Source: Candidatus Latescibacterota bacterium (GTDB lineage Bacteria > Latescibacterota > UBA2968 > UBA8231). From it: a DNA stretch of 64,000 nt. The notes under the pieces are model-generated. The model worked only from the letters and a program-made list of their open reading frames with translations, searched no databases and was not told the DNA's origin. The stretch spans positions 5,856,001 through 5,920,000 of the forward strand of contig OZ241867.1 of the NCBI GenBank assembly GCA_965203175.1, in the 5' to 3' direction. Below, in pieces: positions 1,212 to 7,145 of this stretch; within the stretch, counting starts at the first letter, position 1; every line of letters starts with the position of its first letter. The position numbers were made by a program, and so were the translations under genes.

Positions 1212-1316
1212 GGCTTAGCTGGGCAGAGCGCACATGGCCGGCGGGATTACCGGGTTTCCTCCCTTAAAGATAGGAGGTACGCGCGATCTCTGGTAGACTG
1301 CGACCGGCGGGGATGC

Positions 1317-2033
1317 TTATGCCCACTGCCCTTGTAGCCAGCCAACGACCTTTTCGACCATGACCTGCGCGTGCTCGCTAAAGACGTGATCGGCCCCGTC
1401 GATGACGACGAGTTCGCCGTTGTCCCTCGCTCGGGCGAGAATATCGTGCGAGTCATCAATCGGTACCACGTCGTCCTCGCTGCCGTGTACCAACAGCCAA
1501 GGCACTACAATCTCGGCCCCGCGTCGCACCACGGTGTCGATCTGGGCCATGTCGTCCATGTAGGCTTGCGAGAGCGGGCAGTCTGGCTCATCCCACATGC
1601 ATCCCTCGTCGGGCACCTCCTCGCCAAACTCGCGCTCGGCAAAGGCGTGCGTATGCACCATGCCCGCCAGGGAGACGAGCAGGCGAATGCGCTCGTCGCG
1701 GCTCAAGACGCCGACTGCTCCCCCCATGCTGTGGCCGACATAGCAGACCGAATAGCCGTCTAAAGCGTCGAGCACCGCGCCGAGATCTTCAACTTCTTTG
1801 GAGATCGTCGCGTCGGCAAAGCGGCCCTCGGACGCGCCATTGCCGGCAAAGGAAAAGCGCAACGCGTGGATGCCAGCGGCCGCTAATCTCTCGGCGAGCG
1901 CTACGACAAAGGGGCGGTCCTTGTTGCCGGTCACGCCGTGCCCCAAGACGGCGATGTGCCGCGATCCCTCCGTGCCGGCGTGAAACGTGTAGTCCAGCAT
2001 TTCGCCAGACGGGTTGCGAATGGTTCCGAACAT
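1317..2033 (-). CDS. Alpha/beta-hydrolase (esterase/peptidase-like)
   Basis: HG oxyanion motif, GHSMGG nucleophile elbow, HGSEDDVV and GADH. Start moved to MFGTIRN (AGAAGGA upstream); the track gives 2099. Confidence 0.85.
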   Translation of the reverse strand: MFGTIRNPSGEMLDYTFHAGTEGSRHIAVLGHGVTGNKDRPFVVALAERLAAAGIHALRFSFAGNGASEGRFADATISKEVEDLGAVLDALDGYSVCYVGHSMGGAVGVLSRDERIRLLVSLAGMVHTHAFAEREFGEEVPDEGCMWDEPDCPLSQAYMDDMAQIDTVVRRGAEIVVPWLLVHGSEDDVVPIDDSHDILARARDNGELVVIDGADHVFSEHAQVMVEKVVGWLQGQWA

Positions 2034-2176
2034 GGGGTTCATCCTTCTCATTTTGGTGTTCGATCTGTACGTCGTTAGGCTGTCTGCGCTTGAGAACATC
2101 CTCCGCCAGTGTTCTCCTTATCCACATGGCTAGCGAATCGCTGCTTGGATTACTGTTTGGGGCAATAGATTATAGT

Positions 2177-3268
2177 TTACTCGACTAAGTCGCCGAGACC
2201 ACAGGCCGAACCAAAGGTTTCTATCTTCCATCGCCCCTGCGAGCCGAGCGGGTGCCGCAGCCGAATCGCGCCTGGTGACATCGCTAGCTGTCGAAGTTCG
2301 ATGCCGGTACTGCGAATGGTTCGGTCAACCATACTATGCCTGCGCACTTGGGATGGTGCGGACAAACCGGTGCTCGCCGTTGCATAGGCGTTTGTTGTGT
2401 GTGCGAGAATACGCCGCACATCGCGTTGGCTCGGCAGTACATGGCCTCCCCTACACCATGGTGCCAGCACCGCGACGGGATTGGATTCCAGCATCCGGTT
2501 CCACACATCCGGTTCATCGGCGTTTTCCGATCCATGGTGCGGAACCTTGAATACTGACGCCTTGTCGGTTGGCCGCTCCTCACTCTGCAGAATTTCTACC
2601 CAACCGCGCTTTTCCAGATCCGAACCGAGTAGCACCGCAATATCATCAACGCCGATCCAGAGCACGACTGACATATCGTTGGGAGTAACATATGGAATCC
2701 GTGTCTTTGTCCGATTCTCTCTGGGGAACAGATTGCCAATAGATTGCAGGAAGTTCCAAAAAGCGACGTCACTAGGCGACAATGACCAGACCTCACAATT
2801 GCCCCAAGCATGGATACGTCGGTTGGCCGCAGCAAACGTGAGGCGCGACGCCTTGGACTCAAGCCAAGTGAATACGCGGTGTATCTCTCGAACTCCTGAA
2901 CCGGCCTCGGAGAGGTGGCGACTTTCCAAAGCACCAACGGCCGCGAGAAATTCATTGTTGAGGAGAGCATTGGCACAACAGAAATCGGCCTTGCTGCAGA
3001 CTTCCACTAGCCTCGTCATCCCGCATATGTGATCGTCGTGCCAGTGAGTCGCCACAACCAGATCGACCACTTGCGCCGGATCGACGCCGATGCTTTCGAG
3101 ATACTCTAAGGCACGTGGGTTTCCTTCGGCGTTGACACAGGAATCAACTATCACCCAACCACCGGAACCTATATGTAGGACGATGCTCTCGCCGTAGCCG
3201 GGGCCGAACAACACGACCTCAAACTCATCCTCGTCTGGCGGGATTCCCGCCTCCCCAGCTTCTGTCAC
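2177..3268 (-). CDS. Stand-alone ComEC/Rec2-type metallo-beta-lactamase-fold hydrolase (putative nuclease)
   Basis: GPGYGES, IVDSC, THWHDDH, NDMS, LGSD and KVPHHGS motifs; no TM segments; GTG start overlaps the upstream stop (GTGA). Confidence 0.85.
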   Translation of the reverse strand: MTEAGEAGIPPDEDEFEVVLFGPGYGESIVLHIGSGGWVIVDSCVNAEGNPRALEYLESIGVDPAQVVDLVVATHWHDDHICGMTRLVEVCSKADFCCANALLNNEFLAAVGALESRHLSEAGSGVREIHRVFTWLESKASRLTFAAANRRIHAWGNCEVWSLSPSDVAFWNFLQSIGNLFPRENRTKTRIPYVTPNDMSVVLWIGVDDIAVLLGSDLEKRGWVEILQSEERPTDKASVFKVPHHGSENADEPDVWNRMLESNPVAVLAPWCRGGHVLPSQRDVRRILAHTTNAYATASTGLSAPSQVRRHSMVDRTIRSTGIELRQLAMSPGAIRLRHPLGSQGRWKIETFGSACGLGDLVE

Positions 3269-3879
3269 TGCTCGAAAGCCGCCATGATTTTACGAGCCCA
3301 TTCCTCGCCATCCCGAAGGTCAGTCTTGGTAATCGCCGGAAGATCGCGAAACACGATATAGGAAACACTCTTTTTCGCTCCCGCCGTGCGCTCGTAGCCG
3401 ATCACCCAGCGGAAGATGCTTCCGACCTGCAATTTGGCAGCATCGTCTTCTAATATTTCATCTAGGGGGATATTCGCTTCTTCCCCCGCATAGGTCGCCT
3501 TTGCCGTCAGGTCGGTCAGTCTTGCAGTGAATTCCGTGTCGTTTATCTCAGTGACATATCCTTCCCACTCTTGTAGGGCATGGAGTGTCACAGACGGGGA
3601 TGGGCTTACTGGAAGCTCCGGTAGTTTCACAATCCAGGAGAAAACATCGCTGTCCTGTTCATGGTCGGCGAACGCTGGCAAGGTCTCCTCTTCCATATCT
3701 TGGTCCTGGTCGTGCACAATTGTTGTCGGAGAGTCCGTTCCCTGCTCTAACGCCAAGGTGATAGCTTGGTCCGCATTCTGAACGAGGGGCTCCTGCTGCA
3801 CAGCATTCTCACCGAAATCGCTGAGCTTTTCATGCGGATTGGCATGTTGTACCGCTGTGGATTGAACCGCCTGCAACAT
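3265..3879 (-). CDS. Hypothetical protein: acidic disordered N-terminus plus S1/OB-like C-terminal domain
   Basis: Coupled to both neighbours. WEGYVTEI...FTARL...IPLDEI...LQVGSIFRWVIG resembles the S1/OB strand pattern (by eye). Confidence 0.65.
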   Translation of the reverse strand: MLQAVQSTAVQHANPHEKLSDFGENAVQQEPLVQNADQAITLALEQGTDSPTTIVHDQDQDMEEETLPAFADHEQDSDVFSWIVKLPELPVSPSPSVTLHALQEWEGYVTEINDTEFTARLTDLTAKATYAGEEANIPLDEILEDDAAKLQVGSIFRWVIGYERTAGAKKSVSYIVFRDLPAITKTDLRDGEEWARKIMAAFEQ

Positions 3880-3882
3880 GAA

Positions 3883-4605
3883 CTAGTCCTCCTTTGTCTT
3901 TGCTAAGGACATAATGTGATCAATGATACCGTTGCTACGCTCAAGTGACGTATCGAAGTTGTCATCGAAAAGCTCCATCAAGCGCTCGGCAGTTTCCAAC
4001 TCGGCATTGTCGATGGCATAGTGATCGTTGACTCCTACATAAACTCCAGTTTGCCTATTTCTAATCCGGTAAGACGGTTCCACCGTAACGTTGATTTGAC
4101 CTCCCGTTGGCCTTCCATCGGGGGCGAGTTGCGACATCGTCAGCGACTTCATCCCGCCATGCCTGCCATCTAGATCGAGGTCACGCCCCCAAGTCCCCCA
4201 CGGTTCCACTGGTGCCAGCGTTCTGCCAATTCGATCCCGTTCGGCCAAACTTTCCACCCGAAAATGAACGTCGCGATTGATTCCGAACGCCCTGAGGGGC
4301 GTATGATGCAGGTACTCCTTGAATATCCGTACGACGAGGTCTCGCAGGCGAACGTGAGGTGCCTGCAATGTTTCGACGAAAAATTTATCAACCTGGACCT
4401 GCAGGCGAAGCCAGCCAGCGACAAAGTTAGTCACCTGCGGATTAGCAATATGTAATTCCGCGCTGTCTGCGACACTCTCCGGCAGAAGACCGTGCAGCGC
4501 AAACCAAGCCGGCGTGAAGATCGCCGGGTTGAAATCCCCGAGCAAGACGACACTCACGCCGCTGATCTCCGGCTCGATCCTCATGTTATCTATCCTCTTC
4601 GACAT
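3883..4605 (-). CDS. Hypothetical protein, TIGR04255-like
   Basis: SVVLLGDFNPAIFTPAWF...HTPLRAFGIN...VNDHY resembles my recollection of TIGR04255-like proteins (unverified). Alternative start 4584 has a GAGGA RBS. Confidence 0.6.
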   Translation of the reverse strand: MSKRIDNMRIEPEISGVSVVLLGDFNPAIFTPAWFALHGLLPESVADSAELHIANPQVTNFVAGWLRLQVQVDKFFVETLQAPHVRLRDLVVRIFKEYLHHTPLRAFGINRDVHFRVESLAERDRIGRTLAPVEPWGTWGRDLDLDGRHGGMKSLTMSQLAPDGRPTGGQINVTVEPSYRIRNRQTGVYVGVNDHYAIDNAELETAERLMELFDDNFDTSLERSNGIIDHIMSLAKTKED

Positions 4606-4649
4606 AGCTGGTGTCGTGCACGGTCATGTCACGAATCCAGCTTCACGAG

Positions 4650-4678
4650 ATAATCTGTCCTATCTGCGCCGCCGTCAA
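4650..4678 (-). promoter_or_regulatory. Putative sigma70 promoter of the three-gene module
   Basis: TTGACG-17 bp-GATTAT on the minus strand. Confidence 0.4.
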
Positions 4679-4765
4679 GAGTACGCGTAGCGTCATCAGC
4701 ATCCGGTGGGCATGTCTGCGATGTATCGCTAGTAGGCGGATAGACCTCGAATATCGTTGGTGTAT

Positions 4766-5944
4766 TCATGACCCCAAAAATTCACAAGTCTGCCGCGCCA
4801 CCACCAATTCCTCGTCAGTGCGCAGCACGTAAATGGGCACTCGGCTCGACTCAGCGTGCAAGCTGCCCTCGCCTTGCACAGCCTCGTTTTTAGCCGCATC
4901 CATCACCACTCCCAAAAATTCCAAGTCGCGCAGAATCTGGCCGCGTACGGCAGTCGAGTACTCGCCAATCCCGCCGGTAAAGCTAATCGCGTCTAGCCCA
5001 CCCATCTCCACCACAAAAGCCCCCAGCCAGTCGCGCGACGACGTCGCCAACACGGCTATGGCCAAGGCACAGCGCTCGTCCCCGCTTTCCGCACCCGCTT
5101 CAATGTCACGCATATCGCCGTACCCGCAAAGCCCTACGAGGCCGCCCTCGTTAGCGCACTGCGCCAACACCTCGTCCCACGGTCGCCCCTCGTTGCGCAT
5201 AACCAAGTCCAGCGCGTACGGATCCAAGTCGCCGATGCGGTTGTTCTGCGGCAGGCCACTCTGCGGGCTTAGTCCATGCGACGCCCCCTGCGAGACTCCG
5301 TCCTTTACCGCGCACAGCGACGAGGACCCACCTAAGTGCATGTTGACATGTTTGAGGTCAGCACGCCCCGCCAGTTCCACGACCTTCTCAGCGGCGTAGA
5401 GGTGGCTGGCTCCGTGGAAGCCGTAGCGCTGGATGCCGTACTGTTCGTACCAAGCGTAGGGCACTGCGTACATTTTGCGCCGCTGCGGCATCGCACCGTG
5501 GAACGCCGTCTCAAAGCATCCGACCCGCCGCGCCTTGGGGGCCACCCGCGCAAACTGCCGGATCGCCGCCACGTACGCGGGATTGTGCGCCGGAGCCAGC
5601 GGATAAAAGTCCTCCATCCGCCCGACGATGTCCTCGTCGAGTTCGACCACCCCGGAAATAGCGCGCGCGTGAACAGCCTTAAACCCCACGGCGTCCAACT
5701 CCTCCACAGAAGCCAACACCCCCCCCTCGGCCAAGCGCGCGAGGGCCTCGTCAATCGCGCTGGCGTGGTCGGGTAACTCCACGGCCTGCTCAACCTCGTC
5801 GGCCCTGCCAATCTCGAAGGTGTGCACCGAGCCTTGACCCCCGATCCGATCCATGCCGCCCCGCGCCAAAACCACCTCCTCGGGCATGGAAAAGACCTTG
5901 TACTTAAACGAGGTACTGCCGAGATTAGAAACTAGGATTTTCAT
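4766..5944 (-). CDS. ackA: Acetate/propionate kinase
   Basis: NLGSTSFKY, PLAPAHN, FETAFH, RYGFHGASH, HLGGSSS, FTGGIGE, TDEE. Confidence 0.9.
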   Translation of the reverse strand: MKILVSNLGSTSFKYKVFSMPEEVVLARGGMDRIGGQGSVHTFEIGRADEVEQAVELPDHASAIDEALARLAEGGVLASVEELDAVGFKAVHARAISGVVELDEDIVGRMEDFYPLAPAHNPAYVAAIRQFARVAPKARRVGCFETAFHGAMPQRRKMYAVPYAWYEQYGIQRYGFHGASHLYAAEKVVELAGRADLKHVNMHLGGSSSLCAVKDGVSQGASHGLSPQSGLPQNNRIGDLDPYALDLVMRNEGRPWDEVLAQCANEGGLVGLCGYGDMRDIEAGAESGDERCALAIAVLATSSRDWLGAFVVEMGGLDAISFTGGIGEYSTAVRGQILRDLEFLGVVMDAAKNEAVQGEGSLHAESSRVPIYVLRTDEELVVARQTCEFLGS

Positions 5945-5945
5945 C

Positions 5946-7145
5946 TCAGGGCCGCGCCGGGCTGCCGTCGGGCAAGCGCGTCTGCGTCCACCCTATGACC
6001 TCGTCTTTACAAGGATACTTAGCCGCCAAGTCCTCGTCGATGTCGATCCCCAACCCCGGGCCATCACTCGGATACATGTACCCGTTGCGCACCTCGGGCA
6101 GCCCCGGAAACATTTCGTATATGTGCTCTGCGAACCGGCACCACTCCTGTATCCCAAAGTTAGGTGCCCACAAGTCCAGATGCAGGTTGGCCGCATGCCC
6201 CACCGGCGAGGTGTCGCCCGGGCCGTGCCAAGCCGTGCGCACCCCGTACATCTGCCCAAAAGCCGCCACATTGCGCGCCGGAGTGATCCCCCCCATCTGG
6301 CTCACGTGCATGCGCATGAAGTCAATTAATCGTCCCTCGATGAGCGGCGTCCACTCGTGCGGGTGGTTGAACAACTCGCCCATGGCCTGCGGCGTCGCGC
6401 ACTGCTGGCGGATGTGGCGGAACCACTCAATGTCTTCGGGCGCGAGCGCGTCCTCCAAGAAGAATAGCTTGAACTCCTCCACATCCTTGGCAAAACCCAC
6501 CGCCTCAATCGGGTGCAGCCGCTCGTGGATGTCGTGCAGCAGTTCCACCTCAAAGCCCAGTTCGGCGCGGATGTGCGCAAACATCCGCAGGTGATTCATC
6601 ATGTACTCTTTGCGGTTGTAATACGCACCTTCGGGAGCGCCCTCGGGTTTGACCAAGGTCAATGCCTTGCCGCCGTAACCGCCCATCTGGCAGCGGATGT
6701 AGCGATAGCCTTGCTCTTGGAACTGGCGGATGCTATCGACGACGGCCTCGGGCGTGTCGCCGCCCGCGTGGCCGTACACCGCAGCCCCCTCGCGGCACTT
6801 ACCGCCCAGTAATTGGTACACCGGCATCCCCGCCCGCTTGCCCTTGATGTCCCACAGCGCCTGATCGACGCCAGAGATGGCGTTGTTGAGCACTGGGCCG
6901 TTGCGCCAATAGCCGTTGACCATCAACATCTGCCAAGTCTCCTCAATCCGGTCCACGTCGCGACCGATGAGGAAGGGCTTGAAATGCTGCTCGATGGCCG
7001 TATGCACGGCGTGGAAGCGCTGGGTGAAGGTCGCACAACCAAGTCCGTACAGGCCGTCGTCCGACGTGATAATCTTGACGATGACCAAGCGGGAGCCGCC
7101 CGGTTGGGTGAGAATGGTTTGAACGTCTTTAATGGTAACGGCCAT
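5946..7145 (-). CDS. RspA/ManD-like sugar-acid dehydratase (enolase superfamily)
   Basis: YWRNGPV, ALWDIKGK..GMPVYQLLGGK, LLHDIHERL, FLED, GELF and HG motifs. Confidence 0.88.
   Translation of the reverse strand: MAVTIKDVQTILTQPGGSRLVIVKIITSDDGLYGLGCATFTQRFHAVHTAIEQHFKPFLIGRDVDRIEETWQMLMVNGYWRNGPVLNNAISGVDQALWDIKGKRAGMPVYQLLGGKCREGAAVYGHAGGDTPEAVVDSIRQFQEQGYRYIRCQMGGYGGKALTLVKPEGAPEGAYYNRKEYMMNHLRMFAHIRAELGFEVELLHDIHERLHPIEAVGFAKDVEEFKLFFLEDALAPEDIEWFRHIRQQCATPQAMGELFNHPHEWTPLIEGRLIDFMRMHVSQMGGITPARNVAAFGQMYGVRTAWHGPGDTSPVGHAANLHLDLWAPNFGIQEWCRFAEHIYEMFPGLPEVRNGYMYPSDGPGLGIDIDEDLAAKYPCKDEVIGWTQTRLPDGSPARP

Follow-up and report, generated by a model that had tools for sequence, protein, structure and literature searches.

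Work from 2025 established that nucleases of the metallo-beta-lactamase (MBL) fold are common death effectors in bacterial immunity and are activated by partner proteases (PMC12799240; 10.1101/2025.11.14.688446). Such MBLs serve the Hachiman, Avs, Lamassu and DRT systems as DNase effectors, and the protease-gated pro-nucleases among them include HamM of Hachiman HamMAB, CanC of caspase-nuclease loci and the MBLs encoded next to Avs1/2/4, Lamassu and DRT (PMC12799240; 10.1101/2025.11.14.688446). In known defence MBLs, disordered linkers that lie over the active site act as gates (PMC12799240). An OB domain together with an MBL also makes up the soluble domains of ComEC (PMC5031224). Auxiliary nucleases have been described as embedded in BREX-related loci (PMC12839542), and embedding in Hma loci has served to find active defence systems (preprint 10.1101/2024.01.29.577857).

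Here, we describe a locus of three genes, A, B and C, in a 64,000-nucleotide stretch of the Candidatus Latescibacterota bacterium contig OZ241867.1 (assembly GCA_965203175.1), referred to as the window. We think it fairly probable that positions 2034-4775 form a self-contained, horizontally mobile three-gene anti-phage cassette in a variable defence slot, in which an A-B module would release or activate the putative MBL DNase C. The triad, which is probably a new anti-phage system, relies on an effector of a known kind (MBL DNase) and lacks a protease partner. Its genes and their neighbours are arranged as follows:

1317-2033, minus strand: alpha/beta hydrolase (Pfam Hydrolase_4 and Abhydrolase families), a core gene outside the system
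2177-3268, minus strand: gene C, ORF of 363 aa, soluble ComEC-like MBL-fold hydrolase, proposed DNase effector
3265-3879, minus strand: gene B, ORF of 204 aa, stop codon at 3265-3267
3883-4605, minus strand: gene A, ORF of 240 aa
4650-4678, minus strand: promoter-like site upstream of A (TTGACG-17-GATTAT, 9/12 in a consensus scan)
4766-5944, minus strand: ackA (Pfam Acetate_kinase E 2e-89, TIGR00016), a core gene outside the system

The triad matches no named system, as the first-pass annotation had supposed: neither A nor B has a match in PADLOC-DB v2.0.0, NCBIfam r20 or Pfam (each at E≤0.1) or in PHROGs, and the PADLOC matches of C are partial. A and B represent two protein families that are unnamed in any library and are paired with a known effector type. 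Likewise, a full-text literature search, covering main texts, found no description of the triad.

Like the protease-gated MBLs, C is a soluble ComEC-related MBL encoded by a separate gene inside defence loci, and its PADLOC matches LmuA (E 2e-12, 44.6 bits, residues 16-109), RTasMBL (E 5e-12, 43.7 bits, residues 24-168) and, more weakly, Avs1a (E 3e-4, 18 bits) each cover part of it. The protease-gated MBLs, however, have a trypsin-, caspase- or subtilisin-like protease, whereas the insert holding the triad is without any (A and B lack a Pfam match at E≤0.1); C is instead partnered by an OB-like protein and by a member of a new alpha/beta family. Moreover, the additional segments of C show conservation and, in the prediction, bind B instead of forming disordered gates.

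The nearest curated or solved relatives of C are those of the ComEC MBL domain, in agreement with its initial annotation, namely the NCBIfam models PRK11539 and TIGR00361 (E 3e-6 and 6e-5) and the PDB entries 9ic4 (E 9.5e-4) and 30bt (E 3e-3). Broader matches are to Pfam Lactamase_B (E 7e-8) and phrog_28593 (E 2e-37). The triad shares with ComEC the HxHxDH ... D ... HHGS set and the pairing of a (here predicted) OB-type domain with an MBL, and the motifs said to be intact at first inspection are, together with D217, invariant among the homologues aligned:

3029-3046, minus strand: HxHxDH metal-binding motif of C (HWHDDH, residues 75-80), invariant in 25/25 homologues
2618-2620, minus strand: D217 of C, invariant in 25/25 homologues
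2528-2539, minus strand: HHGS motif of C (residues 244-247), invariant in 25/25 homologues and aligned to the HHGS of ComEC MBL structures

Unlike ComEC, C has no membrane domain, OB and MBL are found on separate proteins, and the triad is mobile and patchy while the genome has a separate full-length ComEC of 818 aa. The predicted lack of transmembrane helices was upheld by a maximum Kyte-Doolittle 19-residue mean of 1.53, the threshold for a membrane span being 1.6. The scores of C also lie far under the ComEC cut-offs (25.8 bits vs 969 for PRK11539 and 21.4 vs 190 for TIGR00361), and its region from HxHxDH to NxxS, as read from the alignment, is about 117 aa long vs about 75 aa in the solved structure aligned to it, followed by a longer C-terminus. 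This extra sequence relative to the ComEC MBL domain is a point of likeness to the protease-gated MBLs. Judged by its sequence, C is related to the ComEC MBL domain, yet it is no ComEC, and we infer that it would act as a DNase effector.

Three further systems deserve comparison. The 6A-MBL system (NF058524) likewise employs an MBL-fold protein against phages, but C matches this model over 26 residues (66-91) around HxHxDH (E 6.6e-6) and, because the match is limited to the motif and scores 25.5 bits vs a cut-off of 220, C is not a member. As regards PDC-M48 (PADLOC-DB v2.0.0), C partly matches PDC-M48B (E 1.4e-7, residues 196-261), whereas nothing in the triad matches PDC-M48A. Finally, the Hma-embedded candidates HEC-01 to -09 resemble the triad in their position between hma genes (10.1101/2024.01.29.577857). 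The words 'MBL' and 'lactamase' are absent from the main text of that preprint; its unnamed embedded families may nonetheless include the triad. Hma genes flank the triad in other genomes, but HmaA, HmaB and HmaC are all missing from the insert and its immediate flanks in the window; the triad is Hma cargo rather than an Hma component.

The insertion between ackA and the hydrolase gene that had been read from the sequence is borne out by comparison with relatives. Homology to the congeners G014 and G010, in which the junction is empty, ends at 2033 and restarts at 4775/4776 (blastn), and metagenome contigs of DNA runs part from the window at 4775 (X2) and 2039 (X3). The inserted cargo of this hotspot accordingly spans 2034..4775 (2742 bp, 2.74 kb) and consists of the triad with 143 bp of DNA beyond its downstream end and about 170 bp before its upstream end, A, B and C being its only genes. 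It is richer in A/T than its surroundings, as was noted at the outset (GC 0.51-0.57 over 2400-4800 vs 0.60-0.66 in the flanks). On its two sides, ackA is present in all 31 genomes of the genus searched, and the start of the hydrolase gene abuts the ackA stop at the empty sites L117 and L118; this start is most likely 2033, not 2099.

Within the insert, the three genes are co-oriented and tightly packed, as first described: 3 bp separate the A stop from the B start, in frame and with AGGAGG just upstream, and the GTG start of C overlaps the B stop as GTGA. Most A homologues begin at M8 (4584), which is probably the true start of A. By contrast, the 'own putative promoter' of the first-pass annotation did not stand out, since the region contains two promoter-like sites vs 1.7 ± 1.3 in shuffled sequences, and neither the promoter nor the terminator scan of the region exceeds shuffles. 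RNA library X1 yielded contigs at 3292-3483, 3739-4101 (spanning the A/B junction) and 4567-4801, with 90-99% identity; these are no more than a hint of expression because DNA may occur in such libraries and the contigs are strandless. X1 gives no cover over most of C, an absence that carries no weight.

The ackA-hydrolase junction is a clean natural chromosomal defence hotspot with several states in one genus: empty, Septu, STAND-like, Hma/Nsn and triad. It is empty in G014 and G010, and holds Septu PtuA/PtuB in G002 (E 3e-113 and 4e-56); G013 and G019 have ORFs of equal size there. ATPase and AAA_16-TPR STAND-like pairs occupy the site in G011, G021, G022, G023 and G042, and HmaC, DUF7680, NsnABC, HmaB and a PLD-SNF2 helicase do so in G001. 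The triad stands alone at the same site in G006, G041 and G012 (84-92% DNA identity), follows HmaC in G008 (HmaC ... A-B-C) and is preceded by an HmaC remnant and DUF7680 in G046, while G005 retains an HmaB remnant.

Elsewhere, the triad is again met among defence genes. Locus L022 has the order HmaC (2e-98), DUF7680, A, B, C, HmaB (4e-66) and PLD-SNF2 helicase, so that the triad fills the slot that NsnABC takes in G001, and L061 reads type III Mod (2e-183), Fic, A, B, C, a small ORF and type III Res (2e-146). Hma parts or DUF7680 lie beside or around the triad in 17/78 loci and type III R-M genes in 8/78, and in at least 31 of the 78 PADLOC recognises a defence gene no more than two genes away on either side, a raw count not set against random genes; many of the loci come from related MAGs, so that none of these counts are independent. 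About 47/78 loci lack a recognised defence neighbour, in part because just 122 of the 155 neighbour representatives were scanned. The defence context proposed initially is supported by the variable slot within the genus and by the Hma and type III R-M genes around the triad elsewhere. Recurrent placement in defence loci and variable presence at a conserved site, the general marks of a defence system, were both observed, the former as a raw count.

Such neighbourhoods could also mean that the triad is not autonomous but serves as an accessory or reserve nuclease dependent on a host system (Hma/BREX-related or type III R-M), the copy in the window being the leftover of a decayed Hma locus. Besides the 17 loci in or beside Hma parts and the eight beside type III R-M genes, the apparent decay series at the very same site (G008, G046, G005) speaks for this explanation, as do the auxiliary nucleases that BREX-related loci are reported to embed (PMC12839542). 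We nevertheless consider it unlikely: the insert in the window is the triad alone with tight boundaries, the stand-alone form has been kept in G006, G041 and G012, the neighbours are unrelated in the roughly 47 loci mentioned above and fall into 203 different clusters overall, and the triads on a plasmid and a viral contig are without Hma. In addition, Septu and Nsn, which are Hma-embedded too, have separate PADLOC models of their own.

The cassette itself is discrete, moves horizontally and is distributed patchily. Of the 80 best A loci (A identity 56-85%), 78 retain A-B-C in the same order and strand, as the conserved neighbourhood anticipated for the triad demands, and the records of related loci name at least 11 higher taxa, although the phylum labels of MAGs are inconsistent (the same-genus G012 and G006 go under Latescibacterota and Gemmatimonadota, respectively). 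Within the genus, A was detected in 9 of the 24 congeners searched and not found in the other 15, and all 11 genomes with a strong C match have A too; together with the plasmid copy and the many higher taxa, this supports the patchy distribution and horizontal movement that had been suspected. One IMG/VR viral contig holds A-B-C between terminase and portal genes, whereas a search of 50,697 phage records found no A homologue. Effector swapping, which had also been envisaged, was not seen, the MBL following B in those 78 of the 80 best A loci; of the more distant A relatives, the survey took in one plasmid.

Not all copies are intact. Among the 80 loci, C has eight internal disruptions, A is non-intact in two (frameshifted in L059, no intact ORF found in L086) and B shows no clear breakage. 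The excess in C, which is partly due to C being the longest gene of the three, fits a costly effector. It is also what a selfish addiction cassette of the toxin-antitoxin type might display, with C as toxin and A and/or B as antidote stabilising the carrier DNA without a role against phages. The tight, translationally coupled operon, the occurrence on a plasmid and a prophage-like contig, the preferential loss of C while A and B stay intact and the predicted binding of B near the active site of C would all suit such a cassette. Yet, to lie in R-M-like defence loci and in a slot shared with Septu, STAND NTPases and Nsn is typical of defence genes and not of simple addiction modules, and we regard a purely selfish role as unlikely. 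The two roles are compatible in any case, as many abortive-infection systems are toxin-antitoxin-like.

How the proposed anti-phage cassette might control its nuclease is suggested by the middle protein, which consists of a disordered half and an OB-like barrel, as the first-pass annotation had it:

3589-3879, minus strand: N-terminal half of B (residues 1-97), poorly conserved and predicted to be disordered, with one short helix (33-47)
3268-3588, minus strand: C-terminal domain of B (residues 98-204), five-stranded OB-like barrel plus C-terminal helix, predicted docking partner of C

Residues 1-90 have a pLDDT <60, whereas the five-stranded C-terminal domain exceeds 90. The top VIA-align rows for this domain are all OB folds, with middling Z scores of 5.1-7.2 that fall in the range the tool terms common (eIF5A 7.2, EF-P 7.1, Unr cold-shock 6.9, PAN-N 6.3); Foldseek returned nothing for it at E≤1e-3 (best E 0.02). 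Relatives of B form 2866 clusters that align mainly over residues 85-203. One single-cluster protein, P0153 (569 aa), has FtsZ domains ahead of a B-type OB domain, possibly as a gene-calling artefact.

Structure prediction places B on C, a binding that is predicted only. The B-C complex reaches an ipSAE of 0.70 (runs 0.68, 0.70 and 0.76) vs 0.00 for the best control, a mark that 116/157 solved complexes but just 2/215 mismatched pairs meet, these benchmark counts being only roughly valid since own alignments were used here. The runs have at least 49% of contacts in common, and partner pLDDT is at least 58. The confident interface takes in residues 102-203 of B only, with the arm lying outside, and the conserved extra segments of C are predicted to contribute contacts.

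The acidic N-terminal arm had been cast as an element that could restrain the nuclease, which it might do as an antitoxin or as a DNA mimic. In the window, residues 1-95 of B are indeed predicted to be disordered and contain 18 D/E and 2 K/R (net charge -16), and disordered linkers over the active site gate known defence MBLs (PMC12799240). However, no part of B is less conserved than the arm (30-sequence alignment), the net charge of the arm runs from -10 to +4 across 29 homologues and is zero or positive in 12 of them, and the arm does not take part in the confident interface. Furthermore, four divergent A-B fusion proteins occur naturally, in four lineages, and keep a comparable linker, the arm being the stretch that joins A to the OB domain. 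We give the acidic-arm explanation little credence, and the N-terminal half is probably a flexible tether to A.

Gene A represents a new, highly conserved alpha/beta family. Its homologues number 826 at E≤1e-3, the best 120 of which are 64-90% identical and carry no Pfam domain, and the AF2 model has a pLDDT of 81 and a pTM of 0.80. Fold matches by VIA-align are middling (McsB kinase domain Z 8.6, AdoMetDC 6.6, TBP 6.3), the best Z of 8.6 again being within the range termed common. A recognisable sensor or enzyme signature is absent from A. No function was drawn from the best VIA-align matches, McsB and phosphagen kinases (Z 7.4-8.6), nor from the Foldseek matches to TBP, RepDE and AdoMetDC, which reach E 6e-5 to 1e-3 with TM scores of just 0.26-0.33. 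The initial description of A as TIGR04255-like was not sustained: A has no NCBIfam match at E≤0.1, and the TIGR04255 HMM (cut-off 30 bits) misses it. Run across the genome (E≤10), this HMM hits a single gene, which is not A (G000, 4681824-4682570, 119 bits); hhalign of the A alignment gave a probability of 0.07 against the genome's own TIGR04255 protein and of 0.3 (E 0.18) against a 21-sequence TIGR04255 alignment, with an A profile that is shallow (Neff 1.8).

Taken as an anti-phage cassette, the triad might work as follows. C would be the toxic effector, a ComEC-type MBL DNase. B would serve as an adaptor whose OB-like domain and last helix dock on C beside the metal site, using an insertion (residues ~103-143 and 182-192) and a C-terminal extension (~306-330) of C as docking surfaces, and which would be tied to A through its disordered N-terminal half. 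A, in turn, may sense infection or otherwise license the nuclease, such that upon infection the A-B module would free or activate C and DNA would be degraded. The roles of sensor, antitoxin or chaperone, and effector, like protection against phages itself, are those we infer; which partner senses, what it senses and whether B acts as a gate on C or supplies C with substrate are parts of the same conjecture. More tentatively still, C may be the first ComEC-type MBL defence nuclease to be licensed without proteolysis, gated or loaded in trans by a separate OB-fold protein that is tethered or fused to a new, extremely conserved sensor, the whole forming an autonomous anti-phage system that circulates among plasmids, prophages and bacteria of at least 11 higher taxa and is able to slot into Hma and type III R-M loci.

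A housekeeping or DNA-processing role for the triad, as a soluble, split version of the ComEC-type OB+MBL nuclease in DNA uptake or repair or in nucleotide salvage, is a very remote prospect, since, for all the agreement with the soluble domains of ComEC (PMC5031224) and with ComEC MBL domains as the nearest solved relatives of C, the genome already has its 818-aa ComEC elsewhere, the triad was not found in 15/24 congeners, two genomes have nothing at its site, and the triad has spread across phyla at 56-85% identity into unrelated neighbourhoods and defence loci.

If the triad proves protective against phages, it will add a new system to the defence catalogue, reveal a second, non-proteolytic way to silence a ComEC-like DNase and give a function to a family whose A homologues exceed 800 and whose B homologues form over 2800 clusters. 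The cultured carrier Adhaeribacter swui KCTC 52873 makes this directly testable: its plasmid NZ_CP055155.1 keeps A-B-C, with A 32%, the OB domain of B 43% and C 30% identical to their counterparts in the window.

Our analysis best supports reading the triad as a mobile cassette against phages, with a ComEC-like metallo-β-lactamase (MBL) DNase for its effector; both the DNase activity and the protection are predicted. It comprises three ORFs:

3883-4605, minus strand: gene A, ORF of 240 aa
3265-3879, minus strand: gene B, ORF of 204 aa
2177-3268, minus strand: gene C, ORF of 363 aa

As the first-pass annotation had described, these genes are co-oriented and tightly packed, with 3 bp separating the stop of A from the start of B and with C starting on a GTG that overlaps B's TGA stop. 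The A-B junction is in frame and has AGGAGG immediately upstream. The block is indeed flanked by ackA and an alpha/beta hydrolase and is more A/T-rich than its surroundings (GC 0.51-0.57 within vs 0.60-0.66 outside). Its proposed own promoter stands only in part, since a promoter-like site is present at 4678-4650 but such sites are no commoner here than in shuffled sequence. Near the window start, a minus-strand ORF (3-1211, running off the edge) encodes, judging from its translation only, a membrane-anchored multihaem cytochrome with several CxxCH haem-binding motifs.

Both ackA and the hydrolase occur in 31/31 genomes of the genus searched. In genomes G014 and G010 the two genes abut, and homology to the window ends at 2033 and restarts at 4775/4776, which defines 2034-4775 as cargo. 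Contigs of two public DNA runs leave the window at 4775 and 2039, i.e. at the same borders as the insert. The triad occupies this junction alone, as in the window, in G006, G041 and G012, and in a broken form in G003; further genomes carry the cargo listed below.

Cargo at the ackA-hydrolase junction in further genomes (Septu, Nsn and the helicase-methylase-ATPase system Hma are known defence systems)
G002: Septu PtuA/PtuB (E 3e-113 and 4e-56)
G013, G019: ORFs equal in size and position to those of G002
G011, G021, G022, G023, G042: 440-450-aa ATPase and 790-1100-aa AAA_16/TPR STAND-like protein (no PADLOC match at 1e-5)
G001: HmaC, DUF7680, NsnA, NsnB, NsnC, HmaB, PLD-SNF2 helicase
G008: HmaC, DUF4325 protein, PIN protein, then A-B-C
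G046: HmaC fragment, DUF7680, then A-B-C
G005: HmaB fragment
G009: triad remnants

It is at this junction that a first rival to the cassette reading, dependence of the triad on a host system, can be weighed: A-B-C follows Hma parts in G008 and G046 and stands by itself in the three genomes that resemble the window.

Several minor features of the hotspot deserve mention. The STAND-like loci (L109 1469-6151 in G011, L110 1443-5980 in G022, L112 1393-5415 in G021, L113 1413-5292 in G023 and L114 1444-5078 in G042) encode an ATPase, assigned to ATPase_2/AAA_22 in the single locus scanned, and after it an AAA_16, TrmB-like wHTH and TPR protein, possibly a further unnamed defence pair. Between HmaC and the triad of G008 (L123 5437-6849) lie three small ORFs of 167 aa (no match), 121 aa (DUF4325, STAS-like) and 183 aa (PIN domain), which may be a second module embedded in this Hma locus. 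About 100 bp across the ackA 3′ end (window 4746-4847) are repeated within the hotspot (G001:C1:3087629-3087730, G046:C13:5395800-5395898), with the first two-gene module on one side of the copy and the Hma module on the other, judging by its coordinates, and this repeat may be a trace of cargo addition. In the public run X2, summed contig depth is 17 over the triad vs 50-140 over its flanks (window 1300-6000), and in X2 and X3 alternative contigs depart from the window at the insert borders, suggesting that strains with other cargo co-exist in the same samples.

A search with A gave 826 homologues at E≤1e-3; among the best 120 listed, identity is 64-90% and no Pfam domain is present. A one-genome-per-species scan confirmed 140 loci, and the best 80 form the set used here. 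The taxa named in their records, whose MAG labels are not always dependable (the phylum label differs between two genomes of the genus to which the window belongs), are Latescibacterota, Gemmatimonadota, Alpha- and Gammaproteobacteria, Acidobacteriota, Binatia, Rhodothermales, Spirochaetia, Entotheonella, Thermodesulfobacteriota and Syntrophobacterales, Nitrospirales, and Dehalococcoidia and SAR202. The conserved gene order anticipated from the sequence was borne out: the genes always share a strand, B follows A in 79/80 loci and C follows B in 78/80, the exceptions being L086, which stops at a contig end, and L067, without C. Under our own criteria, A is intact in 78/80 loci (defects in the frameshifted L059 and in L086), B in 76/80, with full-length ORFs retained in the flagged cases, and C in 68/80, its 12 defects being eight internal disruptions and four contig ends. 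In L030 (8758-9783), foreign DNA of ~1 kb, which may be an insertion element, interrupts C. An A homologue (32% identity) lies on plasmid NZ_CP055155.1 of Adhaeribacter swui KCTC 52873 and is followed by B-like and C-like genes (locus tags HUW51_RS00705 to RS00695); the annotations of the three are ‘hypothetical’, ‘hypothetical’ and ‘MBL fold metallo-hydrolase’. The GenBank phage collection yielded no A homologue, and one IMG/VR contig holds the triad between terminase and portal genes, close to an S24 repressor-like gene. A plain addiction module is the second rival to be considered for a triad with this plasmid and viral distribution.

For the neighbourhoods of the triad, genes were called in 78/80 loci (L076 and L083, where the triad was lost in the greedy ORF step, were left out), and the two nearest genes per side were clustered into 203 clusters. 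PADLOC was applied at E≤1e-15 to 122/155 cluster representatives of at least 160 aa; labels were passed from representative to whole cluster, and DUF7680 was treated as linked to Hma on the basis of Pfam and its position. A defence gene is among the nearest neighbours in at least 31/78 loci, which include related genomes and are not independent. Hma parts or DUF7680 lie beside the triad in 17 of the 78 and type III R-M parts in eight, with PtuA, NsnB, PDC-S01, PDC-M38A/B, PDC-S11, PDC-S28, a type II REase and an E1-E2/JAB protein as further neighbours; it is with these neighbourhoods that a housekeeping role, a further rival, has to be compared. Two loci illustrate the arrangement, L022 with the order HmaC, DUF7680, A, B, C, HmaB, PLD-SNF2 helicase, and L061 with Mod, Fic, A, B, C, a small ORF and Res. 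Embedded genes occur in 62.7% of Hma systems and have been used for finding active systems, according to Payne et al. (10.1101/2024.01.29.577857); such loci have been renamed BREX-related DUF499 systems (PMC12839542), and an MBL is mentioned in neither main text. A DUF7680 protein (158-200 aa), for which PADLOC holds no model, directly follows HmaC with either cargo, triad or NsnABC (L022 6361-6963, L111 6492-6968, L120 3938-4432), and looks like an unlisted fourth Hma component.

The putative effector, C, matches Pfam Lactamase_B (7e-8), the solved ComEC MBL domains 9ic4 (9.5e-4) and 30bt (3e-3), phrog_28593 (2e-37) and, weakly, ComEC models, with partial matches to the PADLOC models LmuA, RTasMBL, PDC-M48B and Avs1a. 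In agreement with the first-pass annotation, its MBL motifs HWHDDH and HHGS are intact and no membrane span was found; both motifs and D217 are invariant in 25 homologues.

A and B are labelled hypothetical in RefSeq and are without a match in Pfam (2025), NCBIfam r20 (June 2026), PADLOC-DB v2.0.0 and PHROGs v4, in keeping with an unnamed system. No description of the triad was found in the literature searched; an unnamed listing is possible in the supplements of 10.1101/2024.01.29.577857. The model of A (pLDDT 81, pTM 0.80) shows an antiparallel sheet backed by helices and a long C-terminal helix; its best fold matches, McsB/phosphagen-kinase catalytic domains (Z 8.6-7.4), AdoMetDC and TBP, are too weak for any of these functions to be assigned. 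Nor is the proposed TIGR04255-like label for A supported. The true TIGR04255 member of this genome (257 aa, 119 bits) is encoded elsewhere, within L097 496-2262 (G000:C1:4680819-4682585); after it, on its own strand, come two small ORFs (126 and 207 aa) that overlap and lack a Pfam match. This family occurs in 29/121 genomes of the phylum searched. Residues 1-95 of B are, as expected, predicted to be disordered and are poorly conserved, and residues 98-204 fold, in the predicted structure, into five strands plus a helix (pLDDT >90). All top VIA-align rows for this domain are OB domains (Z 5-7), with no Foldseek match at E≤1e-3; the B family comprises 2866 clusters at E≤1e-3, aligned mostly over residues 85-203. 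P0153 (569 aa) joins FtsZ GTPase and FtsZ_C domains to a B-type OB domain (residues 434-568), which may be a genuine fusion or may stem from faulty gene calling.

How might the three proteins work together? Fusions of the form A-linker-OB occur as four proteins (425-438 aa) in divergent lineages, and a fifth protein (452 aa) contains A with no detectable OB domain. Since A and B share a frame and are separated by 3 bp, losing a single stop codon would yield such a fusion, whose recurrence suggests that A and B act together. The predicted B-C complex scores 0.70 (runs 0.68, 0.70, 0.76) vs 0.00 for the best of three controls and passes the tool's mark, which 116/157 solved complexes and 2/215 mismatched pairs meet, rates that are only rough, the alignments being our own; at least 49% of contacts are common to the runs, with partner pLDDT of at least 58. 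The confident interface pairs B 102-203 with C 103-143, 182-192, 273-275 and 306-330, takes in C 25, 45, 49, 79 and 82 beside the HxHxDH motif, and includes predicted strand pairing between C 323-325 and the conserved EEAxIP motif of B (133-138). That an acidic arm of B restrains the nuclease, another rival reading, is unlikely: the acidity is not conserved and the N-terminal arm lies outside this interface.

The OB domain of ComEC is thought to deliver nucleic acid to the nuclease active site. Known defence MBLs are zymogens that a protease encoded alongside them opens (PMC12799240; 10.1101/2025.11.14.688446; 10.1101/2025.09.03.673762). The triad, in contrast, encodes no protease, and C has extra segments that are conserved and on which B is predicted to dock, which is why we propose control of C in trans: within the putative anti-phage cassette, an A-B module would govern C, with B either blocking its active site or delivering nucleic acid to it.
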